DNA of 64,000 bases from an uncultured Lentisphaeraceae bacterium. GTDB lineage: Bacteria > Verrucomicrobiota > Kiritimatiellia > RFP12 > UBA1067. The position numbers were made by a program, and so were the translations under genes. The stretch spans positions 2,365-66,364 of the forward strand of contig CAYMLQ010000001.1 of NCBI GenBank assembly GCA_964390795.1, written 5' to 3'. Every line of letters starts with the position of its first letter. Positions within the stretch are counted from its first letter, which is position 1. The notes beneath the pieces were generated by a model that did not search any database, was not told where the DNA came from, and saw only the letters and a program-made list of their open reading frames with translations. Shown one piece after another: positions 335 to 40,096 of the stretch.

Positions 335-3300
335 TTACTCCGCTGCAGGCGCGGTGAGAAGCAGGAAATCGTACGACATGTTGAAGGCGTACGACACCGG
401 CAGCCCCTGCGGTCCGGGGTAGGAGGCCTTGTCCGCCCACAGGAAGAAGCCGCGGCCGGCAACGCCGTCGGGCGCGTCGCTGCGCTCGGGCGTCAGCGCG
501 CCTTCGTATGCGATGGTCTTGGAGGTGTGTGTCGTGCCGTAATCGAACCACGCTTTGAACGAGCCCTTGAACACGCCGGTCGCCCGCGTCAGGGCGACGG
601 TCAGTCCCACCGTATTGGTCGAGCCGTAATCCCACACGCGATCCTTGTCGGGGTCAACCGGCACGCCCACCTTCGGAGCCGCGAGGCCGGTCATGACGCC
701 GAGCCTGTTGGTTGCAACCGTCAGACCGAGTCCGGCTGGATTCCAGCAGACCGACGTGTACCGGTTCGTTCCGACGAGAAGATCCGGATCCGGCGCGGCA
801 CCGTCCGTGCCGACCGACAGCGTGCCGCCCGTGTAGTACATGTACAGGTTGCCGACGGTGTCGTACCAGCCGCCGGTCAAATCCAGCTCCCTGAAGAACC
901 CGGAACCATAGCTCTGCGTCGCCTGCGGACTGCGGTTTTCCCAGACCGCCTTGGCGCTCCACCCATCGTCCATATACCGCACAGTGACGGGGCCGCTCAC
1001 CGGCTTCACAAACTCGGCAAGGCCGAAGAAGCTTCCGCCCTTATAAGCGGTCGGAGCGGCGTACAAAACCGTGTACACGTTTTCTTCTCCTGTGAGAATC
1101 AGCACGCCGCTCAGCGAGACGGCGGTCCCGTCCGCCAGTTTGCCGGCGGTCTTCACGTTTCCGGCCTTGTCCACCGTAAACGTGAGGTATCCGCTGCCGT
1201 AGCCCGAAGCGCCCGGCAGTACGGCCGTGTAGTAGCCGGTATAGTTCGTCGCCACGGTGGCCAGCCCCACGTCCTTCCACCCGTTGCGGTACATTTCCAA
1301 AACCCCGTCAACCATCCAGGACACTGCCACACCCAATGTCTGCGGAACGGTGTTGGGCTGCTCATACGATTCCGCCAGTTGCCAAACATCTATCGCAAGC
1401 GGTATCACGGCCTTGCCCGCCTGGGCGTGGGCTTCGAGAACACAAATCCCATTCTCAAGCCGTGTGTACGAAGCCGAAGTGAAAGCGTAGTTCGTCCCGC
1501 CGAAGGTGAGTTTGCCCGTGATCTGACCGAGTGCCGTCGCCGTCATCGTAGCCACACCGCAGGCTTCGCGGGAACCCTGGCTGTCGAGCTTGTAGTAAGT
1601 GCCGTTAAAGGCGCCCTGCGCCCAGGCGGGCAGCGCTCTGACCGTAACGGAGAACGTTTGCGGCACAGCCGTTCCCGCCGCGTTCGAGGCCGTAAAGCTC
1701 ACGCTGTACGTTCCCGCCTTCGTCGGCACGCCTACGATACGGCCCTTGTCCGCATCGAGCTTCAGCCCGGTCGGCACGCCCGTCACCGTAAACCGAGGCA
1801 GACACTCGGAAGCGACCGGCAGCGCCACGCTGAACGCCACGCCCACCGTTGCCTCCTGAGGGCCGGGGCTCCATGCCTGCGGGAGCTCAACTTCTGCCGT
1901 CCTCTTGAAGCTGGCCGTGCAGAGCATGACGCCGTTCTGTGCGCATTCCGCCGCCTCTTCGCCAGTCACCTTGCGCGCGGCCGCCTGACGGCCATCCTCC
2001 CAGTTGAGGAACGTCCACCCCGTGTTCGGAGCGGCGGTCAGGGAAATGGTCTTGCCGGGCAGGCAATACGCGCCGCCCGTAACACGACCGCCCTCTGGCG
2101 GCAGGGGTACGCCCGCGACAAACACGCCCCTATTCGGCACGGTGCCTGCGTCATCGTCACGAAGGGTGACCGCGCAGACACGCGGCTCCGCAACGAAGCC
2201 ACCCACAGGGCTCCCCAGCGTCAGATAAAACAGCTCGTCGCCCTCTGCCAGCTTGTCGCCCGTTATCGGAACCGTCACATACTTGACACCCGACTCCCCT
2301 GCACCCCAGGTCAGATTGGTGCCTGCGACGGGGAAGGAGTAGTCCGCTGATGTTGCGGAGGCTGGCTGCGCGGAGACTTTCACCGAGACCGGGCCGATGC
2401 CGGAAACCGGGATCACCGCGCGGACACCACCGACGCCTGAATTGCCCTCACCGGACGTCGTGTACGTCTCCTGCCCGAAGGACACCTCTCCCCACCCGAA
2501 CGTGAGTTGGTCGACCCAGCCGCAGTCGCTGCCAGATGAGACATTGCCATCCTTTTGATAAACCCATTTCAAGGTGTGCACGCCGACCGGAATTGTGAAT
2601 ACTTTCTGCTGCCAGGTGATGCTCCCCGAAATGGAACCGGGCTGCTCGGCACCGTCGATGTAAAACATCAGCTTATCCCACTTCGCCTCAGATGAAACGC
2701 TCCACCAGAACGTGAGCATACCGGGGCCCGTCACGACGGTCTGGAAGACACTTTGCTGTGAATGCGTGATGCTGCCGCTCTGTGCCGCGTCCACGCCGTC
2801 ATGTGAAGCGCCTGATTGACCGTACCAAGCTACATTTCCACTGGTCATCCACGTCAGCACCTCGCAATCCAGTGCCCCTCCAAGCTGATTGGCCGCTCCC
2901 ACTGTCACCGCGTATGTGGCGCCCCGCTGGTTGTTTGACTCATCGCTTTCGAGGATGGCGTCGGCACTGTCGACGAACGCACGGTAGGTCTTGTTCCCCA
3001 CGCTTGCCGGCGCGGTGAACGTGTGCGTGAACGTGCTGCTCGCGCCAGCAGCCAGCGTCCCGACACTCGCCCAACCATCGCCCGCGCTCCCAACCGGCGC
3101 GTCGGAGGAACGGTCGATCCAGACATTTAACGAGCCGCCGGAACCACTCGCCCCGCCCTGATTTTTTACACTGATCGTGGCGGTCATGCTGTCGCCTGGA
3201 ATAACGGATGTCGACGACAGAGTAATGGACTGGACAACGAAGTCGGGGCGTAATGCCACAGGTGTAAAATAGGCCGTGAGGCTTAGGGCACCCGTCACCG

Positions 3301-8337: not shown

Positions 8338-11300
8338 TCAGATGAGGATAAAATCGTACGACAAGCTGAAGCCGTAGGTCACGGGCTTGCCCTGCGCGTT
8401 GAGGTACTGCGACTTGTCCGCCCACAGGAAGAAGCCGCGTCCCGCGACGCCGTTAGCGCCGTCCTCGCCTTCAGGCGTCAGCACGCCTTCGTATGCGATG
8501 CTCTTGGGCGTGTGCATCGAGCCATCGTCGAACCATGCCTTGAAGGCCCCTTTGAAAATGCCGGTCGCACGCGTCAGGGCCATCGTAAGCCCCACGGTGT
8601 TGATGGCGCCGTACTCCCATTTCCCATCTTTCTCGGGGTCAACAGGCACACCCGCCTTCGGGGCGGTGAGGCCCGTCATGACGCCCAGCTTGTTGGTCGC
8701 CACCGCCAGAGCGACGCCGTCCGGCCGCCACCAGGCCGACGCCGTGCGGTTCGTGCCGGCGGTCAACTCCGGCGCGGGCACCCCGTCGGCCGTACCGACC
8801 GAAAGCGCCCTGTCCGCATAGTAGCGGTACAGGTTGCCGACCGTGTCGTACCAGCCGCCGGCCAGCCCGAGGCTCCGGCTGAAGCCGCCCGCGGCGTAGT
8901 CGCCCGTCGCCAGCGGGTTGCGGCTCTCCCACAGGAAGGTCGTCCCTGTCAGCGCGCACACAAAGACAGGCGAGCTACTCGAAGCTTTGTGGAACTGGAG
9001 TGCGCCGAAGAGGCAGCCGCCCTTATACGCAGCGGGAGCGGTGTGGAGCACCGCAAACACGCGCCGATCCCCGTCGAGGAGCAGCGAACCGCTCTGCGAC
9101 ACCACCGTGCCGTCCGCCAGTTTGCCCGCCGCCTTCACGCCGCCAATCTTGTCCACCGTGAAAGCAAGATACCCGCTTCCATACTCCGCGCCGCCCGGCA
9201 GGGACGCCGTGTAGTAGCCCGCGTAGTTCGTCGCCGACGCGGCCATATCCGCATCCTTCCAGACGTTGCGATACAGCACGACAGGCGCCTGACCCTCCGC
9301 GGCCCCATCCAGCCATCCCTCCGCCAGACCGAGACCGGCGGGGGCCTCCGGCTCGTTTTCAGGATGCGTCACGAGCACCGTCAGCGGCACCTTCGCCTGG
9401 CCGCCCACCGCCACGGCGGTAAACCTCAACGGCAGTCCGTTGGTGTACGACGCGGCGCTGAACGTGTAGTTCGTGCCAGCCGCGCTGAGCCTGCCGGCGA
9501 CCCTGCCCTGCGCCGTCACCGTCATTTGTGCAGTCCCCGGCTCGGCACCGCCGCGCAGTGCGCAGGCGCCGGCGAAAGTCCCCTGCGCCCACAGGGGCAG
9601 AGGATCAACGGTGATGCGGATGGTCAGCACGCACGGCGTCTTGTTCACGTTTCGAGCGGTGACCAAAACCGCCCGATTGGTGACCGCCGCCGACGGCGCG
9701 CCCATAATCGCCCGTGCGGCCGCGTTGAAGGTCAGCCCTGCCGGAAGACCGGTCACCGTCACCACCGGCAGACTCTCGGACTGGATGTCCAGCGGCAGGC
9801 TGAAAAACACGCCGGCCATCGCCCGCTGCGCGCCCGGATCGGCGACCACCGGCTGCGAAACCTGGGCCGTCAGGCCGAACCAGGCCCGCACCGTCACGTT
9901 GGCGTCCGGCATCACGAGCGTGCGCACGGCCGCCTGCGTGCCATCCTCCCAGCGCAGGAAGGTGTTGTTCGCCGCGGGTTTCGCCGTCAGGGTGACTCTG
10001 GCGCCCGGCGCATAGAGCCCCGCGCCCGTCACCGTCCCGCCGCCCGCCGGCATCTCGGCCGTGAGGCGCGCCTTGACGGTGAGCGTCTGCCTCACCGGCA
10101 GAGCGGCCTTAAAGTCCGCAGTGCCCGGCTGGCTCCCCGTGATCACCGCCGCACCCGTCCCCACGACATGGACCAGCCCGTCTTCGATCTGCGCGACCTT
10201 CTCGTTGGAACTCACGTACACGACCTGCAAACCCGACGATGCGGTTGCCCCGGGATTGAAGTTCGTGGCCTCCAGCGCAAGAACAGGCAGGGCTTTGAAG
10301 GCGATGGTCTGGCTGGCGGCGACGTTGTTGACCCGCACCGTCCAGTTGGTTTCGGTTGTTCCCGCCCGCCGGTCCAGCGCTACGGCCTTGATCTGCACGT
10401 CCCGGAACACCACACCCTGCACGGTCGCCGCGTCCGTCTTCAACGTGAACGCGCTGGTGACCGCGTTCGGCGCGCCAGTCCGGGTCTCCCCCTTCAGAAC
10501 GCCGTCCACATACCAGGTGATGTTCGACATCCCGCGCTCCACGTCGGCATCGGCCGTGTCGTTCGCCGTCGCGCTGAAAGCGACCGATGCGCCTTCGCTG
10601 ACCGCCGCAGGGTTCATAACCGGCACGCGCTTGGTGATCACTGGAAGCACGTTCTGCGCCCTGTAGACGGCCGTCAGGGTCACCTTGAGCTTAGGCATGA
10701 TCAGCACCGTAACGGACTGCGTCGGAACAAAGTCGGGGCCCAGCTCCGCATCTTTCGGCGTCATCGTCCACCGGTCGAACAGATACCCGGCAGGCGGCGG
10801 ATCTGCGGACACCTCCACCGGGGTTTCAAACGTATACTCTCCACCGCCAGCGCCGTTGACGACCGTGAGCAGGTTCGTCCCGGATGGCGCATACGGCATG
10901 ATCCCGAAAACTGCCGCATGCTGGCTCCACGTGTAATTGTGAAAATAGACCGAATCCATGTTATACCAGGCGTCGCCATAGCCGGAGATCCCGAAATTGA
11001 GGTGGATCTCGTTACTGTTGCGATACCCGTCGCACACGAGAGCGTGCCCGCCCAGTGCCGACACCATGGTGTAGTAGACCGGATGCGACTCGTCCAGATC
11101 GTTCTGGATTTTCGCAAACCAGGCCGGCGTGGTTGAATCGGCTCTCATCTGGTACTCTTCGCAGATGTAACCGAACACCTCCCGAAACGCGCGGGCGGTC
11201 GCAAGCTGGCTACACACCGACGTTGAGGTTGCCTCGTAATTCGCCTCCATCGCCACGCCGCAATGGTACAGCAGCCGCCCGACAGCCTGTTTCTGGGCAG

Positions 11301-12333: not shown

Positions 12334-12369
12334 CAAAAAGGGGCGGCTCCGCCACCGGAACCGCCCCCC
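12334..12369 (-). terminator. Putative intrinsic terminator after giant paralog 3
   Basis: GGGGCGG...CCGCCCC GC-rich stem which, read on the minus strand, is followed by CUUUUUGCC. This suggests paralog 2 has its own promoter. Coordinates are ±2. Confidence 0.5.
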
Positions 12370-26687: not shown

Positions 26688-27521
26688 TCAAGGCGTAGCC
26701 TGCGGCTCGGCCGCTTCAGGCTCCTCCGGCTCGACATTTTCCTGTATCCATTGGGCCGCCGCCTCGGGCGTCGTGTATTCAGTCTGCGTCACGAATACGT
26801 AATGCTCACGGGCCACCTCTCCCGCGACTTTATTTTCGCCTTGGATGATGCCCACGAGCGCAGCAACCGCCAGGTCCTCTTTCAGCTGATCAACCGACAT
26901 CACGAGCGACTCCATGTCCTCCTGTTGACGCATCGAGCCCATGGCTGCAACCAGCAATTCAGCCTTCGCGTCATCCTCCTGGATCTCCTCGAAAGCCATT
27001 TTCCATTGGGTAAACGCATCCGACGCCACACTGTCGTCTTTATCGGCCAACATCTGCGTGAGTTCAGGCAGAGCCTTTAACCCAATCCATCCGAGAACGA
27101 TGAGCACGCGCGAACGGACGTCCGCGTCTTCCGAATCGAGCAACCTGCGGGCGATCTTCAGTGCGCCTTTTTCGTCGCCTGAATCCAGCAGGGCGCGCAT
27201 GGTGTCTGCATCGCGTTCATCTGGCGTACGCGCACGTGCAGGCGCGGCATTGGTCGCCGCACCGGTGGCCCGCCCGACTCCCCCTGTGGCCGTCCGGCTG
27301 GCGGGGCGCTCCAAACGCGCCCCGCTCTTTTCCGCGGCGATGCGGGCAACCGCCTGCGTTGACCCGAGAGCCGGCTCCCGAAGACCCGTCGTCCCGGCTA
27401 CCGGACCACGCCGTTGAAAGAACGCAAAACAGAGCACCCCCGCGCACACCGCAACAACGCTCAGCACTATCCAGACCGGCTTCACCAACCTAGTTGCCCC
27501 GCGTGCGCTCACTCGCCCCAA
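26688..27521 (-). CDS. Membrane-anchored HEAT/PBS-lyase-like repeat protein embedded between giant paralogs 6 and 5
   Basis: 277-aa ORF with a TTG start at 27519-27521, which overlaps the stop of paralog 6 (27509) by 13 bp. It has a single N-terminal TM helix (VWIVLSVVAVCAGVLCFAFF) followed by HEAT-like repeats (DADVRSRVLIVLGWIGLKALPELTQMLADKDDSVASDAF). Its stop at 26688 lies 41 bp before the paralog 5 ATG. The start codon is uncertain. Confidence 0.45.
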   Translation of the reverse strand: MGRVSARGATRLVKPVWIVLSVVAVCAGVLCFAFFQRRGPVAGTTGLREPALGSTQAVARIAAEKSGARLERPASRTATGGVGRATGAATNAAPARARTPDERDADTMRALLDSGDEKGALKIARRLLDSEDADVRSRVLIVLGWIGLKALPELTQMLADKDDSVASDAFTQWKMAFEEIQEDDAKAELLVAAMGSMRQQEDMESLVMSVDQLKEDLAVAALVGIIQGENKVAGEVAREHYVFVTQTEYTTPEAAAQWIQENVEPEEPEAAEPQATP

Positions 27522-30500: not shown

Positions 30501-32929
30501 CACTCCAGATACCCCTTCACCGGTTTGTAGTCGGTTCCGGGCACCGCCGTGATCTGCTGGGTCTGGTAACGCACACGAATCCGCCCGTCCTTGGCGCTCC
30601 GGAGCACCTTGAGGAGCGCGGTCGGCGTCCCCTCCTTGTACGTATACGCGGCCTTCTCAAACTTCACGGTGCCGACCGTCTGCGCCAGGTAGTTCAGCGT
30701 GTAGGCGCTGTCCGTAGAATTTTCCGAGTCTTCGTGCCCGACCTTCACATAATAGGTACCCGCGACCTCCGGCAGGAGCCGAATGCTCGTCCCCTCTCCC
30801 ACCACGGTGGTCAGATCCGCCCGATAGAGGGTGATCCACGGTGCGCCCGTGTACGGCGACAACGTGAACGTGTAATAGGAATCGGTCTTGAAGGTGACCT
30901 TGAACCAGTCCGCAGCGTCATCCTCCCACAGGCTGTGGGAGCGCTTCTGGCTCTTGTTCGTCGGCGTCAGCGCCGTCGCCGTGGCGGGAAGGTCGTCCTT
31001 CGGGTCGGACGTATCGTTGTAGTTGACCGATACGACGGTCGGCGTCGCACCGGCGTTCACGGTCACGGCCTGATTCGCGGGCGTGGCCCAGTCGGTCACT
31101 GGGGTGAACTTCACCGTCTGCGCACCGGCCACCAGAATCGTGGCTCCCGGCGGGTACTTCGGCGCGGAGGCGCCGTCTAAGACCAGCGACCAAGAGGCTC
31201 CATCGGCCGCCGTCGGCCCGCCGATATTCACCTGAAGCATCCCAAGCGACGCGCCCGCCTTATAGGCCAGCGCGTACAGCGTATAGGGCCCATAGTCGAC
31301 ACCCTGCCCGTCCTGAACGAACACCTGGATATAGAAGGACCCATTCGCCGTCGCAGTAAACGTGCCTCCAGTCGCGAGATCGCCAAGTGTCGCAAACGGC
31401 TTGAGGGTCGTGCCGCTCAGCGTGTAGATGTGCGCTGCGAGCGTGAAATCGTCAAATCCCTCGGCCACAGCCTGGAGTTTGTACGAGACGTCCTTGCGAG
31501 CGTCGATCCTGAACCAGTCGGCCCAGTCCGTGAGCCCAAAGGTGTGCGGCCCGTGTGCGGCGCCCGCAGCCACGGCCGAGTCCCCGGCCGCACCGGGAAG
31601 CGGAGCGAGACCCGCCGCACCCGCGTACGCATCATCGCCGGCATCCCAGTCGTCCGCTTGCCCAGCCGCGCCAGCCGCCAGCTTGCGCGCGGAGAAGACG
31701 CAGTCGACCTCCCCGGTGGGCTCCTCCAGATCCTGACACACTCCCACCCAATAGTCGCCGGTCGCTGGCGCCTTGAACGCGATGCCGGTCTGTGAGTCAC
31801 CCTGAGCCTTGTGGCGGTTCACCAGCAACACCGTCCCCTTGGCATCGTAGAGTTCCATCACCAGTCCGTCCGGCACCTCGTCGCCGGACGTCTCGAACAC
31901 ATAGATCGAGTCCTTGGTGAGCGTGACCTTGAAAAGCTGCTCGTCGATGATCGGGTCAAAGAAGCCGCTGGTAGGATTGTTGCGCGCGAACGGAATGAAG
32001 TTCGTCTCCACGCCAACCACGGTCGGTGCCCCGAGGATGATCGCGCTCGCGTGGGCGACTGGCAGCCGCGCCGGAATCACCTGGTATTTGAAGGTGAACT
32101 GTGCGCTGTCGACGCCCGCCACGATCGCCTGATGACGTCCGGTCTGCGCAGGCACAACGATTTTGCTGTTATTATATTCGTCCGTCCAATCGCCCTCGAT
32201 CACGACGGGTTCGGTGACCCCTTCCCCCTCCAGAATCGTGATATCGAAGCCCAGATTGTCCTGCGTTCCTTTTTCAGTCCAGAATTTGTACTTGTTGCCC
32301 AACGTCAGCGTCATGTTGAAATAGTAGAACCCGTCATGCAGGTTGGCCGTCGTTGCGCCGAGATTGGTTCCGACAGAAATCGTCGCCGGGTTCTCATCCG
32401 TACCCACGGGGATCGGCTCGGTCACGGCCGCCGCCACATAGTTCAGCGTCACACTCTGATCGACCTCGCCCGAAAGCACCAGATAGTAGGTGCCGGATGT
32501 CAATTCCTCGTCGTATTCCCAATCAGCAGCGGTGATCGGCAGCCAAACGTTCTTCGCGTCGCGGGCGGGCCAGCCGGAAAAAGCCGTCCAAAGCTCACCA
32601 GCCACAACATGGCCGACAGACGCGTCGACGCTGTCCCCACTGGTCGCGGAAGTCCAGAACGTATATTCTGTTCCCCGTTTCAGAGAGACCTTAAAATAAT
32701 AGACACCCCAGCCGGAAAGCTCGCCTTCCACCTTCTCGTCGGCCAGATTCACGGTCTTGCTGCTTTCAGAGCTACCCACAGTCAGCAGGGCTGCTGTGGT
32801 CCGGCTGTCGCCCGTCGCGGCCAGCACCACTGTCGGCCACGCCAGGCAAACACCCGCAACCGCGCACAGTAGAAACCGGACAACCCCATTCTTGACAATA
32901 ACGACACTCTGATTGACTGACTGTTTCAT
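27509..32929 (-). CDS. Giant secreted multidomain protein (paralog 6, divergent): PPC (pre-peptidase C-terminal)-like repeats, Calx-beta, Ig-like domains and a divergent copy of the conserved C-terminal family domain
   Basis: The track ORF 27509..32962 starts at a TTG; I prefer the ATG at 32927-32929 (MKQSVNQ...), which has a GGAGGG Shine-Dalgarno ~6 bp upstream. PPC-like motifs are GVYYFKVSLKRGTEYTFW and GFYYFNMTLTLGNKYKFW. The Calx-beta segment reads PGTDYKPVKGYLEWANGDSLAKTISVPLIPD. The C-terminal segment (...FTRATGLFSGTF...FQGVLTP...GLGFYQIPEK) matches the family. Confidence 0.8.
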   Translation of the reverse strand: MKQSVNQSVVIVKNGVVRFLLCAVAGVCLAWPTVVLAATGDSRTTAALLTVGSSESSKTVNLADEKVEGELSGWGVYYFKVSLKRGTEYTFWTSATSGDSVDASVGHVVAGELWTAFSGWPARDAKNVWLPITAADWEYDEELTSGTYYLVLSGEVDQSVTLNYVAAAVTEPIPVGTDENPATISVGTNLGATTANLHDGFYYFNMTLTLGNKYKFWTEKGTQDNLGFDITILEGEGVTEPVVIEGDWTDEYNNSKIVVPAQTGRHQAIVAGVDSAQFTFKYQVIPARLPVAHASAIILGAPTVVGVETNFIPFARNNPTSGFFDPIIDEQLFKVTLTKDSIYVFETSGDEVPDGLVMELYDAKGTVLLVNRHKAQGDSQTGIAFKAPATGDYWVGVCQDLEEPTGEVDCVFSARKLAAGAAGQADDWDAGDDAYAGAAGLAPLPGAAGDSAVAAGAAHGPHTFGLTDWADWFRIDARKDVSYKLQAVAEGFDDFTLAAHIYTLSGTTLKPFATLGDLATGGTFTATANGSFYIQVFVQDGQGVDYGPYTLYALAYKAGASLGMLQVNIGGPTAADGASWSLVLDGASAPKYPPGATILVAGAQTVKFTPVTDWATPANQAVTVNAGATPTVVSVNYNDTSDPKDDLPATATALTPTNKSQKRSHSLWEDDAADWFKVTFKTDSYYTFTLSPYTGAPWITLYRADLTTVVGEGTSIRLLPEVAGTYYVKVGHEDSENSTDSAYTLNYLAQTVGTVKFEKAAYTYKEGTPTALLKVLRSAKDGRIRVRYQTQQITAVPGTDYKPVKGYLEWANGDSLAKTISVPLIPDLRPGWDSDRTFSVLLETVPEGEVEADELVPPFAAPTTAVVTLTEITKKAPGKLGFSGFGSDAEQINAFANAKAPAVTVGAGGAVTLWIARADGADGAVSVTAGTVAGTALAGTHFEAASETLEWEAGDLSPKPFTVATLTTEDPFLAAKAFTVKLTAASGGATLGAASVAFQIRDPSVARTLEEWVAAGGNMTGSALKPSVAGAWFFDEQGLLRCAPLAAKGKSEVTVTLTGPGTLRFAGELSGGAEGDGSALTCMIGSQSIACGDGAEVVRYVAKGAQTVKFTVTRGAGSEADAQVFGRFADWSGQPFEWTPLRAPTLVEPLDKAVLSLGNSGTFRWKAEGVGLFRIYIADTAAKLNRTGALISDYATEGEYCTSCSIYDGFAAGKAYYWRVDSVVPGDDPSDPAQDKLTNPGAAWSFTIWNEAQGAPLTEDLVVGALSAFAHPDGAGYQLIQGLSYLIGPLDAPNGETFKATGLPQGLVLKTVGAETYLAGIPAKTNTVTAIFQASVKVGTATVAGTTFAAPFSVAPAGLAAGTFNGLLTADAMNAHEALASVSSYTAAEAGGLSAKVMIAGKTYAFTGSGFSESIPEVAGGQPGLLALLTLKSTVAGKAYTNTLTVAACRGAATDPGAVDALATAELVLWIPAADNKSAREVTYSGKLVRDNSKVALALAAFKSAAGYYAASLPVAEPVDGAPAGAGYVTLTLAATGSAKLSGVLADGTAWTASAVPGYVSDYEDSGAPALLIPVYTAKAKMAAGGWLVIASDPQSGLPVATGQLDWYNADANATRGGTDGFGLALVPVGGYYDTIFSLQTYYLDAVLTVGAMQAPAAFDATTYTVLLCTPDTYGNVAVNVVGDTLSTDARALAKDATNTKLYDFENSTNPGNLALKFTRATGLFSGTFGLWYGNALGTLQKEQVGLKFQGVLTPCKASGSGYEETPGLGFYQIPEKVGTRTWLGSALFTIDAERFLPDWSEGWGE

Positions 32930-32965
32930 CTCGCCCTCCAACGTTTCACCTTTTCGAACCAAACA

Positions 32966-34159
32966 CTATTTCTGCGGCGGCTGGACCTGCGGCGGCTTGG
33001 GCTGCGGCTTCGCCGCCCGTGTCCACAGATTCGTCCCGTTCGGATAAACGATCGCGGCCTGCGCCTTCAAATTCTCCACATAGGCGTCGATTGCCTGCTG
33101 CTGCATCTGCTGGGTCAGATCCGCCTTAAGACTTGCCGGTGCGGCCAGTTCCGGCGCTGGCTCGCGACACAGGAGAATATGCGCCAACTTAAGGGATTCC
33201 GGCTCGATCACACGGCCCTTATCGTTCTTCTTGGCCGGAATATGTTCCAGCATTTTGACCAAATGAAACCCTTCGTCGTCTTCGAGGACGTCGCTGACCT
33301 CGCCCGGTTTGAGCGCGAAGACCGCCGCCCGCATCTTCAGATTCTGAAACTCGGTACGCTCAAACTCGCCCCAGTAACCGCTGTTGCCTGGCGCGGAGCG
33401 CTGACATTCGGAGTGCTGATCGGCAAGCGTGCCGAACTCGGTTCCTTTGATAATCTCTTCGCGCCACCCTTTAAGCCGGGCGATCTTCAGCGCATTGGTC
33501 GCGTCGATAGCCGCCTGTTCCCCACGAATCGCAGCGTAGGTGGCCTCCATAAACGCATCGTCCACCTTGATTTTTGGGGGGATGTTGGTCGCGATCAGCG
33601 TACTGACCCACACTGTCTGCTCGGCCTCCTTCAACAAAGCCTCTTCTCCGCCGAAAAACGCCTTTTTGAACACGTCCAGTTCCTGGCGCTCCCGTTTCGC
33701 CGCTGCCGCGATCAACTCCTCGGCACGCTTCCGCACCTCCTCCTCGCCCAGCACCTTCCGCTGCTTGGCATCCTGGATCAGAAGCTGCGTGCTGATAAAG
33801 CGGGGAATAAAGGTCTGAACCGCCATGCGCAGCATCGCATGTTTCTGAGCGTTCTGCGCATTCGGTGTCTCAGAGATCTGCTTGACGATCCGCTTCATCG
33901 CAAGGTCGTAGTCCTTACGCCTCAGCGGCGTACCGTTGACGGAAATGATCACGTCTTCCGGAGCCATCTGCTCGATCGTCTTGGAGACGCCGTTCGATCC
34001 GGCGCCCAGCAGCGCAGCGTCGACACGGTTGCTCGCGGAATGTGCCGGCTGTACCGCGACCTGTTCTCCGGACTTGCTTTTACCACAGCCGACAAGCGCC
34101 AAAAGGGCGAACGACAGTAAAGCTGGAAAAAAGATGATCATACTTCTGCACACAGACAT
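32966..34159 (-). CDS. Parvulin-type peptidyl-prolyl cis-trans isomerase lipoprotein (SurA/PrsA/PpiD-like chaperone); likely co-transcribed with the giant-protein array
   Basis: 397 aa with a lipoprotein signal (MIIFFPALLSFALLALVGCGKS). The rotamase domain reads LADQHSECQRSAPGNSGYWGEFERTEFQNLKMRAAVFALKPGEVSDVLEDDEGFHLVKM, preceded by SurA-like chaperone helices. Its stop at 32966 is 36 bp before the paralog 6 ATG at 32929. Confidence 0.8.
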   Translation of the reverse strand: MSVCRSMIIFFPALLSFALLALVGCGKSKSGEQVAVQPAHSASNRVDAALLGAGSNGVSKTIEQMAPEDVIISVNGTPLRRKDYDLAMKRIVKQISETPNAQNAQKHAMLRMAVQTFIPRFISTQLLIQDAKQRKVLGEEEVRKRAEELIAAAAKRERQELDVFKKAFFGGEEALLKEAEQTVWVSTLIATNIPPKIKVDDAFMEATYAAIRGEQAAIDATNALKIARLKGWREEIIKGTEFGTLADQHSECQRSAPGNSGYWGEFERTEFQNLKMRAAVFALKPGEVSDVLEDDEGFHLVKMLEHIPAKKNDKGRVIEPESLKLAHILLCREPAPELAAPASLKADLTQQMQQQAIDAYVENLKAQAAIVYPNGTNLWTRAAKPQPKPPQVQPPQK

Positions 34160-34296: not shown

Positions 34297-34500
34297 GCGT
34301 GTCGTGTCGCACCGGGCGTGTTCCCCGCAAACCCGTCGCCGGCCCCTTGCCCTGCGGACGCCTGCGGGGAGGCGTCCCTACCAGGCTTCGCTAGCCCGTT
34401 GTGCGTGCGTGTCGTGTCGCGCCGGGTAGGGCGGGTTCCCCGCAACCCGCCGCCGGCCCCCGCCGTGCCCTGCGGACGGCTGCGGGGAGGCGTCCCTACC
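34297..34500. repeat. Two tandem copies (~34297-34382 and ~34402-34500) of a GC-rich REP-like palindromic element family
   Basis: Unit: CGYGTGTCGTGTCGCRCCGGG...GTTCCCCGCAAMCCGYCGCCGGCCCC...GCCCTGCGGACGSCTGCGGGGAGGCGTCCCTACC, with internal hairpin GGACGCC-TGCGGGG-AGGCGTCC. It lies between the paralog 7 stop and the PPIase gene. Related copies lie at 41633-41731, 58748-58793 (inverted) and a fragment at ~61023-61060. Confidence 0.75.
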
Positions 34501-34570
34501 TTCGCGCGTCCTGTCCATACACTCGTCGGTTGGTACCAGAAGAATACGAAAAGGGTGCGACCATGTGCCG

Positions 34571-37500
34571 TTACTGATCGACCGGTTCCACCGGTGTCGA
34601 CAGCAACAGGAAATCGTACGACCAATTGAACGGGTACGCGACATCCCGGTTCGATGCATTCTTGTACGAACTCTTGTCCGCCCACAAGAAGAAACCGCAT
34701 CCCTCCTTGCCATCCTCGGCATCCTCGCGCACGGGAGTCAGCAAACCCTCGAACGCGATCGCTTTTGAAGTGTGCGTTGTGACATAGTCAAACCATGCCT
34801 TATATGACCCCTTGAACAGACCCGTCGACCGCGTCAGGTTGATCGTCAACCCGATCGTGTTGTTTGTAACCGCCTTGTAGTCGTAAGCCGCACCAGCTTT
34901 CACAGGCGTCCCGACCTTCGGTGCCGCGAGACCGGTCATCACACCGTAACGGTTGGTGACGGGTGTCAGCGACAGGCCATCCGGATCCCACCAGACCGAC
35001 TCATACCGGTTTGTTCCGGAGATCAACACAGGCGTCGGCTCGTTCGCCGTGCCGACAGCCAACGTCATGCCAGCATAATACCGGTACAGGTTGCCCACCG
35101 TGTCATACCAGCCGCCGTACAAGCCTGTCTCCCGCTTAAAGCCCACGCCGTATTCGCGCGTGGCCTGCGCGTTGTGGCTCTCCCAGAGGAGCGCCTCGCG
35201 GTTCAGCGGGCGCACGACAGTCGGCCCTTCAGCGTCGGGCCGCACGAACTCGGCCAAACCGAAGAATGAGCCGCCCATGTAGGAAGAGGGCGCGGTGAAC
35301 AGCGCGACGAACACCACGCCGTCCGCGTCAAGCAGCAGCGTCGCGCTTGAGGAGACGGTCACGCCGTCCGCCAGCTTGCCCGCCACTTTGACCGCTCCGT
35401 TGCTGGTGGCCGTGAGGGCCAGATAACCGCTTCCGAAGTCGTCGTCGCCGGCGCCGTTCGCCTGAGGCAGCACCGTCGTATAGTAGCCGGCGGCAATCCC
35501 GGCCGCCCCAGCCCGCGCCGCGCTCAGCGGCCTGTCGCCCCAGCCGTTCCGGTAGAGCCTGGCCCCAAACGCCCCCTCGCCGTCCGCGAGTTCCGCGCAG
35601 CCGTTGGTAGGATTCACCAGCAGGGTCAAGACCACCCGGTTGGTTCCCTTAGAGGCTTTCGCGATCAGGTTGGTTGCGGCATACCAGCCATCTTGCGTTG
35701 GCTCACTGTAGCGGCGAGTCACTTCGAAAGCGTAATTCGTGACCGCAAAAACAAGCTTGCCCGTGATTTTTCCCGCCGCGTCGACCGTCAGCGTGGCCAC
35801 TCCGTACTCTTCCGGTACGGTCGCCTCGGCTTCACCCCGCCACGCGTAACCGTTGAACGCTCCGGTCGTCTCGCGGGCGTCGTCCGAGACCCACTCGATG
35901 TCAGAGACCCAGCCGTAGGCGCCCGCGCTGGCGTCGGTCGCCCCGCGCTTGAAAGTCCACGTCACGGTCTGCAAGCCAGCAGGCACCCAGACACGGTTCG
36001 CCCCGTTCGTCACGGTCTGCGCGACTCGCGTGCCGGCCTTCACGATGAAGGTGCAGCCGTTGCCGGTGGCATTGGTGGTGTCCGCATTGAACAGGATCGT
36101 TCCCGGCCCCGTCACTTTGGCCGTCATCACCGAAGAGCCGCTTCTTGAGGCAGGCGGCGCGCACCGAAGGACAGTCCCGTCTTCACCCGTGCCAAACCAG
36201 GCGCCGGCTGCGGCGCTGAACGGCACGCGCGTCACATCGCCGGCGTAAGCGGCGAGGGTCTGCGTGAACACGTCGTCGGTCACGTTCAGCATGGCCAGGT
36301 TTGCGCCTCCCGCCACGCTGGCGTTCGGCGAGGTGAGCGTCAGGGTGACCTTGCGCGCCTGCTGATAGCCTGCCTTGGTCGGCACCTGAACCTCCACCCG
36401 CTTGAGCCCGTCCTCCATGCTGGCCCACAGCGCATTGGTCTGGCCCAGTTTCAGCGTGCCATCCACCCAGGACAGGACGGAGGTCACTGCGCCCGAGTTC
36501 TTGCCGGTCCGCTTGAGCCAGAAGATCAGCTGATCGCCCTCCTTGGCCTCAATAGGGACTCTCGGCGAGAAGGCGTTGTTTCCCTCGCCGATACCGGCGA
36601 ACGCAAGCAGAGGCGCGGTCGGCCTGTCCTTTTCCGTCAGCGTCACCGTCATGAGAGCAAGCCCGTCCAGCTCCTGCGCCGTGTCGGGATCAACCGCAAG
36701 ATCCGCAAAAAAGGTCTCGGCGTCCTCCCACAGCGTGTCCTTCTTCAGCAGGGTCAGGGTCACGCTCTTGTCCGACAGATCCGCCGGCCCCCAGGTAACG
36801 GTCACATTCGTTGCGGCATAATCGCTGCCTGCGGTGGCTGTGCCGTTGCGGGTCGAGACCCGTGCGGTCACCAGCCCTTCCAGAACATCCTCGGCCTCGC
36901 ACCGGACTCGCAGCACGACGGTGCGATCCGACTCGCTCACGGTCACGGCGTTGGAGGTGAAGCCGAGGGCGCACCGCGGCACCTCGCGGTAAAGCAGCCC
37001 GTACTGGACGCAGGACGCCTCATCCGTCTCTCTCACGAGCGCCACAGTCAGCCACCCGCTGGCCGACGCTTGGAAGTCAATGCGGTTCGTCAGCAGGGTG
37101 GACAGCGGAACCTCAAGCCACGCGTTCGCGTTGGTGTAGAAGACGGCCTTGGCGGTCGACGCGGCGACACCCTCCTGAACCAGGTTCGTCAGGCTGACGC
37201 GGTAACGCAAGCCGGCCTGTAGGTTGGTGAAGACCAGCCAATCGGCCGTATCGGCGCCGTTCAGCGTGCCGGCCACCGACTGATTCAAACGGGCCATCGC
37301 GAGATGCAGCTCGGTGTTCTCCGCCCCAGCGTCGCGTGTGCCGTCGCGCGAACCGTCTGCGCCATCGCGCCCATCGAACTGCGCGTCCGTCTCTTGAATG
37401 GTAACCGTCGCGTTTGTGACACCCATCTCCACGGCACCGTCGGCGGACAGCCGCACGCCGAACGACCGGTCCCCCGTCCACAGGTTGCGGGTGTCGGGCG

Positions 37501-40096
37501 CGAGGTTAATCGTGAACATCCGGTTGGTCGCCTCGGGCTGGGCCTCGAAGGTGTAGTCGGCCGAGGCCTCGCCTCCAGCAAGTCCCTCCGTCAGGATATG
37601 GACCGTGGTGGTCTCTTCCGTGTTGCCTGTGCGCAGAACCGTCACCGCTGTGGCGCTGTCGGTGTCCTGTGCGGTCACCGCGGCCGCTTGGAAGCTGACG
37701 GCCGGCCTGATCCACACGCGGTAATTGAGCGTGTAACGGACATACGCGGTCTCTTCAGCCGCACGCGAAATGCGCAGCCAGACCCCGTTGGTGGCGGCAT
37801 CGCCGAACTGCACCAGCCGATTGGTGGTCAGCGTGGCCAGCGGAAGCCCCGAGGCGGCGGGAACCGGCACCAGATTCTGATAGAAGAAGTCCGCGACAGG
37901 TGCCGCGTTGCCCTTGACCTGATAGTCGCTGACGAGGAAGCGGTAATACGTGCCCGGCGTGACCGGCGAGAAGTAGAACCAGTCGTTGGTGTCAGACTTG
38001 CTCAGATACCGCTCGCCCGAGGGCGTGTTTTGATCCGCAAACGCGAGCGGGTGGGTCGTCCCCTGCACACCGTCATACGAATCGGCGACGTCCACCTCCG
38101 GGTCGGACGCGAGAACGACCGTGACGCTGTTCGTGCCGTTAGAAATGAAGTCCGGAGTTGGCACCAGTTCGACGGTGAAGTCACGCTGGCCGACCCAGCT
38201 CGCATTTTTGTCAAGCAGGTCGAGCGTGAGCGGCCGGGTCAGATCATTCGCAGCGAATGCGACCGTGCTGGTTTTCGCGGTGTAGTCGACGCTCCCCTTG
38301 GCCGTTCCGGGAAGCGTGCGGTAGGTGACCTGCGTAACCTCGCCGGTCTGGACGGTGCGCACAAGCTCCAGCGAGAGGGTGCCCGGAACGCTCAGCGGGC
38401 CGACCTGCCTGGAGCGGAACCCGACCACCGGCAGCGGCCATTCGGCAACGGTCAGCGCGTACCGGACGCCGACGGGCACACCAGGCTGGGACGCCGCACG
38501 CGTCAACGCCAGGTAAACACGATTTGTACTGGCAGCAGTAAACAGGAAGTTGGTCGTGTCCGAGGCATTCAAGGCGACCTGCCGCCAGAGCTGAACCACG
38601 GTTTCGGCGCCGGCGACCGCGTTCGTATAGAGACTGGCGGTCAGATCCTGCACGTTGGCCGCCTGATTCGCAACCGACACGCGGTAGCGCATGCCGGGAA
38701 TCAGGTTGGTGAGGGCGACCCAGTCCTGCGCATCCCCTGCGTTCAGCGAGCCCACGAGCGGCCACACACCGCTGGTGACCGCAAGACGGGTGGCTGTCTC
38801 GGACACGTCGTCGCTCGAGCCTGCGTCTCGCGCGTCGAGTGCGGGCTCGACCTCGGTGACGATCACGGCTAGGTTTGTCCAACCCGCTGCAGGCAACCCG
38901 TCCGACTTCAACGAAATGGAGAACGCGCGGTCACCCCGCCAAAGCCCGTTGATGATCGCAACGCTCAGGTGCTGCGTCACGTCTCCGGCCGCAAAACGTA
39001 CAAAGCCGTCGCCTTGCTGCAGATAGTCTGTGCCCGCTTTCGCTGTGCCGTCCTCGAGCGTGTAGGCCACCTGCGCGGCCTCGTCGAACTGATTGGTTCG
39101 GAAGACAGCAACCGTGACAACCGAATTCGTATCCTCTATCGAGACCGTTGGCGCTGTGAACCCGTAAGCATCCTCTTTTTTCGCGACGACCTGGTAGTTC
39201 AACGTATACGCCACCGCCGCAGTGACAACATTTGCCACACGGGTAAATTGAAGGTAGAGGATGCCTGAATTGGTGGCCTGATAGAGATATCCGTCTTGCG
39301 CAAACTGATTCAAGGCAACGGTATGCACTATGTTTGTGCTAGTCTTGCCAGAGTAGAAGACCACGCTTCCGATGTTCGCCGGGTCGCGTACCTCTGTCGC
39401 CTTAAACTGATACCATTTATCTTTCACCACATTCGTAACGCAGAACCAGTCGTTGGTGTCGGAAAACAAATGTGAGCGCTTCGAGGCTGCATAGTATTTC
39501 GCATCCAGCGAATTTTCGCCGTACTGGTTGCATAGCCGTTCGCTCTGGCTTGTTGCGGTGGCGAAAAGCGGCGTCGCCTTCGACCTAATGTCGTCGCGGT
39601 GATTGAGAAAACCATCCACCATGGACACAAACGTCTGTTCATTAAACGGCGTCAGCGTCACGCCGTTATAACGTCCACCCGTAATGTTCAAGAAAAACCC
39701 ATGCTTGGTCACGCTGTCACGCCCGTCGACAATGATGACAGACGGAAAGTTCACGACTTCCGGGTACCGCCTGCGCACCTCGCCCACGAGCGGATCGCCT
39801 TCGCCTTTGTTGTAGTCCGCGTAGACAAGCGGTATGCCTTTGGTACGGGACCACTCGTAGAAACTTGGGTTGCTATAGAGCGAGATGGCTGTCCCGTCAC
39901 AATACGCGCATCCACTCGTACGCCCTAAATTGATTAAATAGAACGTACCTTGACTCTTGGCGAATTCACGCGCCTCCAAGAAATCCGACGTCCACTCACC
40001 CACCCCGGGGCCATCCGGATTAATGGTGGTCGCAACGCTCGTCAGGGTAAAACCGAGAAGGCAAGAAACCAAAGCAACTTTCGTCAGTAGTCTCAT
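34571..40096 (-). CDS. Giant secreted multidomain protein (paralog 7): N-terminal thioredoxin-like CxxC module, several Calx-beta domains, Ig-like domains and the conserved C-terminal family domain
   Basis: 1841-aa ORF with ATG at 40094-40096 and signal MRLLTKVALVSCLLGFTLTSVA. The thioredoxin-like motif is FYLINLGRTSGCAYC, homologous to the paralog 4 N-terminus. Calx-beta motifs include GTDYLQQGDGFVRFAAGDVTQHLSVAI. The C-terminus reads ...GCGFFLWADKSSYKNASNRDVAYPFNWSYDFLLLSTPVEPVDQ. Confidence 0.85.
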   Translation of the reverse strand: MRLLTKVALVSCLLGFTLTSVATTINPDGPGVGEWTSDFLEAREFAKSQGTFYLINLGRTSGCAYCDGTAISLYSNPSFYEWSRTKGIPLVYADYNKGEGDPLVGEVRRRYPEVVNFPSVIIVDGRDSVTKHGFFLNITGGRYNGVTLTPFNEQTFVSMVDGFLNHRDDIRSKATPLFATATSQSERLCNQYGENSLDAKYYAASKRSHLFSDTNDWFCVTNVVKDKWYQFKATEVRDPANIGSVVFYSGKTSTNIVHTVALNQFAQDGYLYQATNSGILYLQFTRVANVVTAAVAYTLNYQVVAKKEDAYGFTAPTVSIEDTNSVVTVAVFRTNQFDEAAQVAYTLEDGTAKAGTDYLQQGDGFVRFAAGDVTQHLSVAIINGLWRGDRAFSISLKSDGLPAAGWTNLAVIVTEVEPALDARDAGSSDDVSETATRLAVTSGVWPLVGSLNAGDAQDWVALTNLIPGMRYRVSVANQAANVQDLTASLYTNAVAGAETVVQLWRQVALNASDTTNFLFTAASTNRVYLALTRAASQPGVPVGVRYALTVAEWPLPVVGFRSRQVGPLSVPGTLSLELVRTVQTGEVTQVTYRTLPGTAKGSVDYTAKTSTVAFAANDLTRPLTLDLLDKNASWVGQRDFTVELVPTPDFISNGTNSVTVVLASDPEVDVADSYDGVQGTTHPLAFADQNTPSGERYLSKSDTNDWFYFSPVTPGTYYRFLVSDYQVKGNAAPVADFFYQNLVPVPAASGLPLATLTTNRLVQFGDAATNGVWLRISRAAEETAYVRYTLNYRVWIRPAVSFQAAAVTAQDTDSATAVTVLRTGNTEETTTVHILTEGLAGGEASADYTFEAQPEATNRMFTINLAPDTRNLWTGDRSFGVRLSADGAVEMGVTNATVTIQETDAQFDGRDGADGSRDGTRDAGAENTELHLAMARLNQSVAGTLNGADTADWLVFTNLQAGLRYRVSLTNLVQEGVAASTAKAVFYTNANAWLEVPLSTLLTNRIDFQASASGWLTVALVRETDEASCVQYGLLYREVPRCALGFTSNAVTVSESDRTVVLRVRCEAEDVLEGLVTARVSTRNGTATAGSDYAATNVTVTWGPADLSDKSVTLTLLKKDTLWEDAETFFADLAVDPDTAQELDGLALMTVTLTEKDRPTAPLLAFAGIGEGNNAFSPRVPIEAKEGDQLIFWLKRTGKNSGAVTSVLSWVDGTLKLGQTNALWASMEDGLKRVEVQVPTKAGYQQARKVTLTLTSPNASVAGGANLAMLNVTDDVFTQTLAAYAGDVTRVPFSAAAGAWFGTGEDGTVLRCAPPASRSGSSVMTAKVTGPGTILFNADTTNATGNGCTFIVKAGTRVAQTVTNGANRVWVPAGLQTVTWTFKRGATDASAGAYGWVSDIEWVSDDARETTGAFNGYAWRGEAEATVPEEYGVATLTVDAAGKITGKLVFAVTNYAFEVTRRYSEPTQDGWYAATNLIAKASKGTNRVVLTLLVNPTNGCAELADGEGAFGARLYRNGWGDRPLSAARAGAAGIAAGYYTTVLPQANGAGDDDFGSGYLALTATSNGAVKVAGKLADGVTVSSSATLLLDADGVVFVALFTAPSSYMGGSFFGLAEFVRPDAEGPTVVRPLNREALLWESHNAQATREYGVGFKRETGLYGGWYDTVGNLYRYYAGMTLAVGTANEPTPVLISGTNRYESVWWDPDGLSLTPVTNRYGVMTGLAAPKVGTPVKAGAAYDYKAVTNNTIGLTINLTRSTGLFKGSYKAWFDYVTTHTSKAIAFEGLLTPVREDAEDGKEGCGFFLWADKSSYKNASNRDVAYPFNWSYDFLLLSTPVEPVDQ

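Follow-up and report, generated by a model that had tools for sequence, protein, structure and literature searches.

In the Bacteroidota, the C-terminal domain of T9SS cargo is an Ig-like beta-sandwich of about 70-100 aa, which is described by models of the TIGR04183/PF18962 type. Translocators of the type V autotransporter or Omp85 type are membrane barrels of 12-16 strands, with strands of at least 9-10 residues and a terminal aromatic beta-signal. Lipocalin-, avidin- and YceI-type barrels (calycin-like) are single-domain ligand binders of about 110-180 aa. Lentisphaerota, Kiritimatiellia and Verrucomicrobiota, which abound in gut, sediment and ocean habitats, encode many giant exoproteins, and to our knowledge it is essentially unknown how these PVC proteins reach the cell surface and stay on it. 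For cargo of the type 11 secretion system (T11SS), it was described that variable effectors are directed to export by an 8-stranded barrel at their C-terminus, and this system has been reported from Proteobacteria only (PMC12282271).

In the 64-kb window, i.e. the whole stretch of DNA that was analysed, seven genes (G1 to G7) share a C-terminal domain, referred to as CTD in the following. All of them lie on the minus strand at the positions assigned by the initial annotation. G1 (335..8176, 2613 aa) comprises a signal peptide, an I69 inhibitor, a C10 peptidase, seven Flg_new_2 repeats, CARDB, Calx-beta and He_PIG domains and the CTD (nt 335-~1654), and G2 (8338..12213, 1291 aa) an I69 inhibitor, a C10 peptidase, Flg_new_2, He_PIG and the CTD (nt 8338-~9657). 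In G3 (12392..15955, 1187 aa), an M64 peptidase is followed by Flg_new_2, He_PIG and the CTD (nt 12392-13711). G4 (16056..22265, 2069 aa) combines an N-terminal CxxC thioredoxin-like region with Flg_new, FGE-sulfatase, He_PIG, Flg_new_2 and the CTD (nt 16056-~17375). Thioredoxin_7, a weak PPC match and Calx-beta precede a divergent CTD (nt 22591-~23910) in G5 (22591..26646, 1351 aa), and Calx-beta repeats precede a second divergent copy (nt 27509-~28828) in G6 (27509..32929, 1806 aa). G7 (34571..40096, 1841 aa) carries an N-terminal CxxC thioredoxin-like region, four Calx-beta domains and the CTD (nt 34571-~35890).

The signal peptides that had been noted are borne out by Sec-type hydrophobic N-termini in all seven proteins, none of which shows a convincing lipobox. 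Likewise, Pfam confirmed the N-terminal modules that had been named, i.e. C10 (G1, G2), M64 (G3), FGE-sulfatase (G4), Thioredoxin_7 (G5), Calx-beta (G1, G5-G7), CARDB (G1) and, weakly, PPC (G5). The claim that the upstream modules differ completely does not hold, as the I69 inhibitor accompanies the C10 peptidase in both G1 and G2 (Pfam), and the CxxC-containing N-termini of G4 and G7, read from sequence, resemble that of G5, which was matched by Thioredoxin_7. Flg_new_2/He_PIG linkers are located directly N-terminal of the CTD in most of the seven paralogs.

While the seven genes had been described as consecutive and on the same strand, only the latter is correct, since two further minus-strand genes are interspersed. 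A gene for HEAT repeats with an N-terminal membrane anchor (HEAT-TM, 26688..27521) has a 13-nt overlap with the stop of G6, and a gene for a SurA-like parvulin PPIase, whose N-terminus is a signal peptide or lipobox-like, is found at 32966..34159. Beyond G7, the minus strand encodes a protein of 323 aa (40234..41205), which bears a signal peptide, matches no family and keeps its synteny only in L018, the closest relative, and a DUF1573/HYDIN-VesB Ig-like protein (41745..42935), which forms the upstream border of the cluster and recurs at the CTD clusters L018, L003, L077, L079 and L085. In L002/L018 and L074, the HEAT-TM gene again stands between a G6-like and a G5-like CTD gene, and in L003 and L085 it is part of the CTD cluster; the SurA-like PPIase recurs inside the clusters L018, L013, L085, L003 and L091. 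G5 orthologs occupy the same cluster position in other genomes, and the gene order is conserved including the PPIase, HEAT-TM and DUF1573 genes. A large part of the conservation of neighbouring genes could simply reflect synteny between related Lentisphaerota. The initial annotation had pointed to the PPIase and HEAT-TM genes as a neighbourhood to be compared between genomes; they are conserved only within Lentisphaerota clusters and not at most CTD loci, and they were rejected, together with the 323-aa gene, as family-wide partners.

The last 430-440 aa (approximately) of G1 to G7 can be aligned end to end. The CTDs of G1-G4 and G7 are 46-68% identical, compared to 26-31% for G5 and G6 against the rest, in agreement with their earlier description as homologous but divergent. 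With a profile HMM of the family, every copy in the window scores 329-602 bits. Since the alignment covers the full length and the profile scores are in this range, the similarity represents homology, and an origin from compositional bias or low complexity is ruled out. The conserved motifs quoted before (LPxWAQGTF, LYRNVWKD, GSGYLxFTVDKxGxVKTAGKLADGT, GGWYD, TRATGxFKGxFKAWFDY and SYDFLLL) are all present. The shared domain is confirmed for all seven paralogs. Weak similarity between segments 1-125 and 126-260 (E 0.003, 42 columns), the only signal when four segments of the CTD were compared by hhalign, is not significant as an internal repeat and, at the sequence level, is at most suggestive of a duplication.

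No match to the CTD was obtained in Pfam at E<=10 or among PDB sequences, either with a single sequence or with a 21-sequence profile. In NCBIfam (five paralogs, E<=0.1), nothing appeared apart from weak SVAGG matches in the Calx-beta region (0.002-0.07), which fell far short of the cut-off. The CTD region likewise carries no annotation in distant members from Verrucomicrobiota and Kiritimatiellia, and literature searches revealed no earlier description of the domain. The assertion that it matches no nameable family thus stands for these databases and, as described below, for whole-domain structural matches; type V beta-domains, S-layer anchors and choice-of-anchor domains all gave no confident match. 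The family comprises 5,215 representative clusters at E<=1e-3, of which 678 still match at E<=1e-30. Matches originate from Lentisphaerota and from Kiritimatiellia, while the relatives in Verrucomicrobiota are shorter. Copy numbers per genome are high, with seven in the array of the window and no fewer than 8-10 loci in single MAGs. The CTD defines a large, formerly unannotated domain family that is confined to the PVC superphylum. Short matches that resembled standalone proteins of signal peptide and CTD proved to be contig-truncated fragments.

The CTD ends the protein (tail of 10 aa or less) in 109 of 126 representatives (~87%) and is also terminal in nearly all full-length matches of 65 genome loci. 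The upstream cargo is highly diverse and includes C10, M64, M10, FGE, BspA-LRR, CotH, CHAP, glycoamylase, chagasin, ice-binding-like and NHL domains, usually with adhesin-type Ig/Flg_new repeats ahead of the CTD. The initial view of a domain placed C-terminal to variable cargo is thus confirmed. About 10% of the members carry real domains after the CTD (FGE-sulfatase-like, chagasin-like), and therefore a free C-terminus is not required; the term C-terminally targeted applies to the CTD with regard to its mostly terminal position, but not in the sense of such a requirement. The proteins possess SPI-type signal peptides, and a lipobox was present in only five of 82 complete members. Their C-terminal tails vary and contain neither a hydrophobic helix nor a terminal aromatic beta-signal.

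For the G3 copy, a structure was predicted by AF2 from a 75-sequence alignment (pLDDT 94, pTM 0.90), after an earlier run with seven sequences had been discarded (pLDDT 54). The model contains 30 strands, with strand lengths grouped 8 + 8 + 14. Strands of 3-11 residues account for 26 of the 30, the last four are long (12-16 residues), and conserved K/R/D/E residues are located mid-strand. Structural searches with the model gave no significant whole-domain match, and none was obtained in BFVD for a phage receptor-binding fold. The best whole-chain match in Foldseek was TbpB (E 4e-3), and the closest folds are small 8-stranded barrels, namely lipocalins, avidins, YceI, hemophilin, TbpB and fHbp. 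The model shows the CTD as a compact, soluble all-beta module of about 430 aa, made up of small up-and-down beta-barrels as known from TbpB, fHbp and lipocalins; judging from strand counts and local matches, the predicted number of barrels is probably three.

A partner gene is located at the other end of the array. The 5' part of this gene, referred to as fam0, occupies positions 1..325 of the minus strand, where its translation is matched by the fam0 HMM (E 1.3e-14), and it starts 9 nt past the stop of G1 in the same frame. The gene exits the window at its left edge and was beyond the view of the initial annotation. Its product is an uncharacterised protein of about 230 aa, in which an N-terminal membrane anchor (MNRYNAMIAGLLVLAGVMVFLTLRP) is joined by an A/P/E/K-rich linker to a conserved helical domain of about 130 aa, and it showed no match in Pfam or the PDB. 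As in the window, a CTD gene is directly followed by fam0 in eight other species genomes. NCBI locus tags of the two genes are adjacent. With fam0 alone as query, 16 independent metagenome loci were retrieved, and in 14 of them fam0 directly follows a CTD gene. The upstream cargo varies between the fam0-linked loci. The linkage is absent in two divergent gut lineages (L092-L095), and beside Kiritimatiellia CTD copies fam0 was not found. A common family of HEAT-TM and fam0 was considered and rejected; because their hhalign match is confined to the TM segment, they are distinct.

Compared to the T9SS CTD, the PVC domain shows the same arrangement, in which each genome encodes many secreted paralogs that combine a conserved, mostly terminal domain with unrelated enzymatic and adhesive cargo, including C10 and M64-type proteases. 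However, with about 430 aa and 30 strands it is about five times larger, it occurs in a different phylum, it gives no T9SS-CTD match in NCBIfam/Pfam and it is followed by further domains in 10% of its members. From lipocalin-, avidin- and YceI-type barrels it differs by lacking sequence similarity and by joining several barrels in a single rigid unit of 430 aa (pTM 0.90) that terminates giant exoproteins. The presence of one C-terminal module on many enzymes also recalls the dockerins of the cellulosome and would be compatible with a common cell-surface docking partner, but Ca-binding dockerin repeats are missing, no cohesin-like partner was identified, and fold and size differ. In contrast to sorting signals and choice-of-anchor domains of NCBIfam (PEP-CTERM, GlyGly-CTERM), the CTD has neither a curated-HMM match nor a TM-plus-basic tail.

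The suggestion of the initial annotation that the CTD forms a large beta-rich translocator, i.e. an outer-membrane-embedded beta-barrel of the autotransporter or two-partner kind, is not supported by the confident model. The beta-rich, G/Y/W-rich composition and the length of the last four strands would fit such a barrel, but because of the shortness of the other 26 strands no set of at least eight membrane-spanning strands exists, and the charged mid-strand residues point in the same direction. Barrels of 12 or more strands were not matched, the aligned length reaching about 140 residues at most, and Foldseek gave probabilities of 0.04 or below for FadL, usher and TonB-dependent receptors. 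Neither an autotransporter nor Omp85 was matched in Pfam, and, contrary to type V/Omp85-type translocators, the CTD lacks the terminal beta-signal as well as the required strand length and barrel, and continues with soluble domains in 10% of the members. Based on strand lengths and the absent large-barrel match this candidate was rejected, and we regard it as extremely improbable. Similar in architecture are the Slam/T11SS cargo proteins (TbpB, LbpB, fHbp, NHBA, HpuA, hemophilin), which join a variable N-terminal effector to a conserved C-terminal barrel as their targeting element (PMC12282271). Together with TbpB as best Foldseek match, this raises the question whether the CTD proteins are true type 11 cargo with divergent TbpBBD or lipoprotein-C barrels, recognised by a DUF560 protein encoded elsewhere. 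We consider this very unlikely. A sequence relationship to these proteins is missing, as neither TbpBBD nor a related barrel was matched in Pfam at E<=10, nor any PDB entry by the family profile. The CTD has several barrels and about four times the size of the single cargo barrel, its proteins use Sec (SPI) while T11SS cargo are mostly lipoproteins, and its hosts are PVC bacteria (Lentisphaerota, Kiritimatiellia, Verrucomicrobiota) instead of Proteobacteria. Its linked gene is the membrane-anchored helical fam0; DUF560 was not seen among the Pfam-scanned ORFs of the window or the called genes of L091-L095, the other loci being compared with each other and with in-house profiles only. All-against-all clustering of 1,255 non-CTD ORFs from 65 loci and the window revealed no recurrent outer-membrane-like neighbour family.

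From architecture and gene linkage we infer a putative function of the CTD in envelope targeting or anchoring, and the reading as a soluble multi-barrel module for targeting to or retention in the cell envelope has, in our estimation, about an even chance of being correct. Accompanying features are those by which a C-terminal sorting/anchoring domain is operationally recognised, i.e. a conserved terminal domain, many paralogs, unrelated cargo and a signal peptide; a dedicated co-encoded factor would be provided by fam0, in its putative role and through a linkage that is not universal. This conserved membrane-anchored partner strengthens the case for a putative secretion or anchoring role. The proteins would cross the inner membrane via N-terminal signal peptide and Sec and would then be recognised by the cell by their CTD, through which diverse cargo (proteases, protease inhibitors, FGE-type enzymes, thioredoxin-like domains, LRR/Ig adhesins) could be transferred over the outer surface or retained there, by a logic like that of T9SS CTDs and of the C-terminal 8-stranded barrels in Slam/type 11 cargo. 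The product of fam0, which usually closes the array, is a candidate periplasmic handling factor, as may be the SurA-like PPIase, HEAT-TM and DUF1573 proteins in this lineage. Possible, although in our view doubtful, is a shared ligand- or substrate-binding module (lectin-, lipocalin- or adhesin-like) that brings enzymes and adhesins to one external target, such as a polysaccharide, a lipid or a host or prey surface, with no part in export or self-anchoring. The closest folds are classic ligand binders, adhesin-type repeats usually stand just before the CTD, and no translocon gene is nearby in the 65 clustered loci and the window. Furthermore, the ~10% of members that continue past the CTD would not normally be expected of a strict C-terminal export signal and are equally consistent with a modular binding domain, which needs no free C-terminus. 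However, the tight linkage of the membrane-anchored, cell-internal fam0 to CTD genes with any cargo, and periplasmic-type factors inside the cluster (SurA-like PPIase, HEAT-TM), point to envelope handling rather than to an external target. The terminal position in 87% also argues against a mere binding module, and an identity of 46-68% between paralogous CTDs despite unrelated cargo is typical of sorting domains.

Extending the envelope-targeting reading, we tentatively propose that CTD and fam0 might belong to an unrecognised PVC-specific export or surface-display pathway for large proteins, joined in Lentisphaerota by the SurA-like PPIase, HEAT-TM and DUF1573 proteins. The multi-barrel tag of about 430 aa would then direct many unrelated enzymes and adhesins per genome to the cell surface by means of a putative outer-membrane component, and would have evolved independently of its counterparts, the T9SS CTD and the barrel signals of the T11SS. 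If the tag function is true, T9SS and T11SS would be joined by a third independent example of a folded C-terminal beta-domain that targets proteins to the outer membrane; even a mere binding module would account for unrelated proteases, inhibitors and redox domains converging on one place. With more than 5,000 clusters, a candidate partner gene and a fold model of high confidence, the family provides a starting point from which the PVC secretome could be found by sequence, the outer-membrane component sought and fusion reporters designed. Even as a binding module, the domain would deserve a Pfam/NCBIfam entry, so that these proteins are no longer named by their linker repeats.

Regulatory RNAs were not found in the window by Rfam. 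In consensus scans, strong terminator-like hairpins with 14-bp stems were located on the minus strand after G3 (12338..12369, with a T-run) and after the 323-aa gene (40176..40207); in the scan with the G3 hairpin, total site counts were not above the shuffled expectation. The scans also placed promoter-like sites on this strand behind the G3 hairpin (12329-12301) and upstream of G7 (40140-40112).

An ORF listing confirmed the seven long minus-strand ORFs of the initial annotation (G1 to G7, numbered by rising window coordinate), which encode proteins of 2613, 1291, 1187, 2069, 1351, 1806 and 1841 aa. All seven carry Sec-type N-terminal signal peptides, as had been claimed. The array is not consecutive as described, since the genes of a membrane-anchored HEAT-repeat protein (HEAT-TM, 26688-27521) and of a SurA-like parvulin PPIase (32966-34159), both on the minus strand, are interspersed. 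The last ~430-440 residues could be aligned over their full length in all seven proteins. This C-terminal domain (CTD) showed identities of 46-68% among G1-G4 and G7, and of 26-31% for the divergent copies of G5 (Trx7-PPC-Calx-beta-CTD, 22591-26646, minus strand) and G6 (Calx-beta-CTD, 27509-32929, minus strand), both towards the other copies and towards one another. Against the family profile the seven copies score 329-602 bits, which indicates homology rather than composition and rules out compositional bias as the source of the similarity; the proposed shared domain is thus real. The cargo modules named before were also found by Pfam, while the statement that the N-termini differ completely holds only in part, since some modules are common to several paralogs (I69+C10 in G1 and G2, CxxC thioredoxin-like N-terminal starts in G4, G5 and G7).

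The CTD defines a large, unannotated PVC family. No match to it was obtained with isolated CTDs against Pfam at E<=10, with whole proteins against NCBIfam, or with a single CTD and a 21-sequence profile against PDB sequences, in agreement with the earlier statement that it matches no family; literature searches did not find a description either. The source annotations of homologs refer to other domains only ('InlB B-repeat-containing', 'YD repeat-containing', 'hypothetical'). A word-indexed search gave 95 close homologs, of which those with names belong to Lentisphaerae/Victivallales, and HMMER, run exhaustively over 1.84 billion cluster representatives, gave 5,215 matches at E<=1e-3, with 1,806 of them reaching E<=1e-10 and 678 reaching E<=1e-30. 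Scanning one genome per GTDB species resulted in 65 loci, all MAG-derived, with at least 8-10 loci within single MAGs. CTD identity amounted to 42-68% in Lentisphaeraceae, Victivallales and Victivallis loci and to 25-33% in Kiritimatiellia loci. In Chthoniobacteraceae and Verrucomicrobiae the matches were partial only, retaining the central sub-domain and a shortened terminal 'TG.F.G.F ... GVL ... G.G.FL' element. None of these species representatives is the source of the window; the closest is a Lentisphaeraceae MAG with 71-75% nucleotide identity and partial synteny. The Kiritimatiellia MAG EPI_MAG_00040 (L042, L044, L047, L048, L049, L052) contains a shortened variant, in which the HMM match stops near position 397 and is followed by a conserved tail of ~20-30 aa ('...PKTQRSELFRL...').

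The placement of the CTD behind variable cargo, noted for the window, recurs across the family. CTD-terminated proteins span 650-3,775 aa, and 37 different Pfam families occur upstream of the CTD among 41 complete members. These comprise peptidases (C10, M64, M10) and inhibitors (I69, I42) as well as FGE-sulfatase, BspA-type LRR, CotH, CHAP, glycoamylase, ice-binding-like, NHL, Calx-beta and other modules, with Flg_new, Flg_new_2 or He_PIG usually immediately N-terminal to the CTD. A lipobox is rare (5/82). Short 'CTD-only' proteins were rejected, as the hits were truncated fragments. Among the 126 top representatives, the CTD is followed by at most 10 residues in 109 and by real extra domains in 13, so a free C-terminus is usual, not obligatory. 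Such internal CTDs (~10% of family members) precede an FGE-sulfatase-like or chagasin-like (I42) inhibitor domain, for example in P0110, P0114, P0120, P0122, P0135, P0148, P0168, P0219 and the L011 ORF 3211-9598.

While AlphaFold2 gave a poor CTD model with seven sequences (pLDDT 54), an alignment of 75 sequences raised the pLDDT to 94 with a pTM of 0.90. The predicted fold is confidently all-beta and composed of multiple small barrels, with 30 strands and a few short helices; strands 1-8 comprise 7, 7, 7, 7, 9, 11, 6 and 5 residues, strands 9-16 7, 7, 7, 7, 7, 8, 4 and 5, and strands 17-30 5, 5, 5, 4, 4, 6, 5, 3, 3, 5, 12, 13, 16 and 16. According to the model, the CTD is probably a rigid unit of three small up-and-down barrels, or of two plus a handle-and-barrel. 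Residues 1-125 and 126-260 resemble one another weakly at the profile level (E 0.003), a hint of internal duplication. Foldseek returned nothing significant (top whole-chain match TbpB, E 4e-3, TM ~0.2), and BFVD gave only a lipocalin-like protein (E 2e-3). The initial annotation had considered a large beta-rich translocator. A membrane barrel requires at least 8 strands, each of at least 9-10 residues, and the CTD has only four strands longer than 11. Furthermore, K/R/D/E are conserved mid-strand, none of the autotransporter, Omp85, porin, usher and FadL barrels matches the model with any confidence, and the C-terminal tails are variable and non-aromatic, in line with the reported lack of an aromatic OMP beta-signal. 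Altogether, the translocator reading is therefore unsupported.

Clustering of all 1,255 non-CTD ORFs of the 65 loci and the window yielded a family of ~230-aa proteins (fam0) comprising an N-terminal membrane anchor, an A/P/E/K-rich linker and a conserved helical domain of ~130 aa. The window copy (1-325, minus strand, opening MNRYNAMIAGLLVLAGVMVFLTLRP...KTPREKAVE) runs off the left edge; its ATG at nt 325 lies 9 nt past the G1 stop in the same frame. The coordinates of the initial annotation do not include fam0; in other genomes, no neighbour of CTD genes is linked to them more consistently. An HMM placed it immediately after a CTD gene in the window and at 8 loci in 8 other species genomes, one each; adjacent locus tags at NCBI are NT118_15775 (fam0) and NT118_15780 (CTD). 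For a reverse test that avoids CTD bias, metagenome contigs were scanned with the fam0 domain alone. Sixteen loci had 1 kb or more of sequence upstream; in 14 of them a CTD ORF ended immediately before fam0, and the remaining two showed a CTD gene just downstream and 4 kb upstream, respectively. Since the cargo of the preceding gene varies by locus (C10, RHS, FGE-sulfatase, Trx7+Calx-beta, none recognised), the link of fam0 is to the CTD. The linkage is tight, yet not universal: the HMM found no adjacent fam0 at Kiritimatiellia CTD loci, including the at least 10 loci of EPI_MAG_00040, and in two divergent gut lineages fam0 lies amid housekeeping genes. Searches against Pfam and PDB gave no match for fam0; its 78 clusters are all 'hypothetical', the few organism-named ones being Lentisphaerae/Victivallaceae.

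Gene-order maps revealed a recurring order, DUF1573 - (323-aa gene) - CTD - SurA-like PPIase - G6-like CTD - HEAT-TM - G5-like CTD - 1-4 further CTD - fam0. The same order was observed on one Lentisphaeraceae contig, which has five CTD genes rather than seven, while a divergent locus retains the PPIase and fam0 together with a Trx7 protein that matches the CTD weakly. Positional orthologs of G5 and G6 occupy the same place in L002, L003, L018, L074 and L091, whereas neither number nor cargo is constant for the remaining CTD genes. Both G5 and G6 thus look like conserved cluster members and may form part of a core instead of being cargo. The 323-aa signal-peptide protein between DUF1573 and G7 (40234-41205, minus strand) has no family match, and its synteny extends to the closest relative only; its gene lies between a promoter-like site (41312-41284, TTGACA-17-TAGAGT with TG) and a strong terminator (40207-40176). 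Two hairpins resembling strong terminators, one past G3 and the other past the 323-aa gene, each precede a promoter-like site; as pattern matches only, they suggest several transcription units, the last being G2-G1-fam0.

The CTD is mostly terminal on diverse Sec-exported cargo, with many paralogs per genome and tight linkage to fam0, from which we infer a common envelope-targeting or retention module. The putative sorting or anchoring role is plausible and is strengthened by the linked membrane-anchored gene. Handling of the CTD would be assisted by fam0 and, in this lineage, also by the PPIase, HEAT-TM and DUF1573 proteins. The main rival explanation is a shared ligand-binding module, as small barrels like those of the CTD habitually bind ligands and 10% of members continue beyond it; however, a conserved cell-internal partner (fam0) weighs against this.

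The closest mechanistic precedent for a sorting or anchoring role comes from T11SS/Slam cargo, where variable effectors are fused to a C-terminal 8-stranded barrel that directs outer-membrane transport (PMC12282271). In contrast to that cargo, CTD proteins show no sequence match to it, belong to another phylum and are not lipoproteins. In those window ORFs that the Pfam scans covered, neither an outer-membrane protein nor a DUF560 gene was detected, and an assignment as T11SS cargo is unsupported. The CTD can plausibly be placed, as a new variant, among the C-terminal sorting and anchoring domains. That it marks a novel route of export or surface display in PVC bacteria is less likely than not.

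Next to the cluster border, a protein combining Schlafen AlbA_2, HATPase_c_4 and a DeoR-type HTH is encoded at 43976-45532 (minus strand), an architecture frequently associated with defence or regulation. Two inosine-uridine nucleoside hydrolase-like proteins are located at 42767-43972 and 48341-49543 (minus strand); at least the first shows an apparent internal signal-peptide-like hydrophobic stretch, and since its stop-to-stop ORF starts far upstream of that stretch, the start is uncertain. Sequence inspection suggested two fragments of one disrupted gene at 45764-46078 and 46658-47023 (minus strand), one resembling the N-terminal part of a Gfo/Idh/MocA-type oxidoreductase with a twin-arginine-like signal and an apparent NAD-binding start, the second a C-terminal piece. 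Because ~580 nt without a long ORF separate them, they may represent a pseudogene. The alanyl-tRNA synthetase ORF (56853-58649, plus strand) comprises only 598 aa and stops just past the tRNA_SAD domain without the usual C-terminal part, which may reflect a short form or a frameshift. A squalene-hopene-cyclase-like gene (50220-52103, minus strand) falls within the part of the window that has the highest GC content (70%) and the strongest GC skew.
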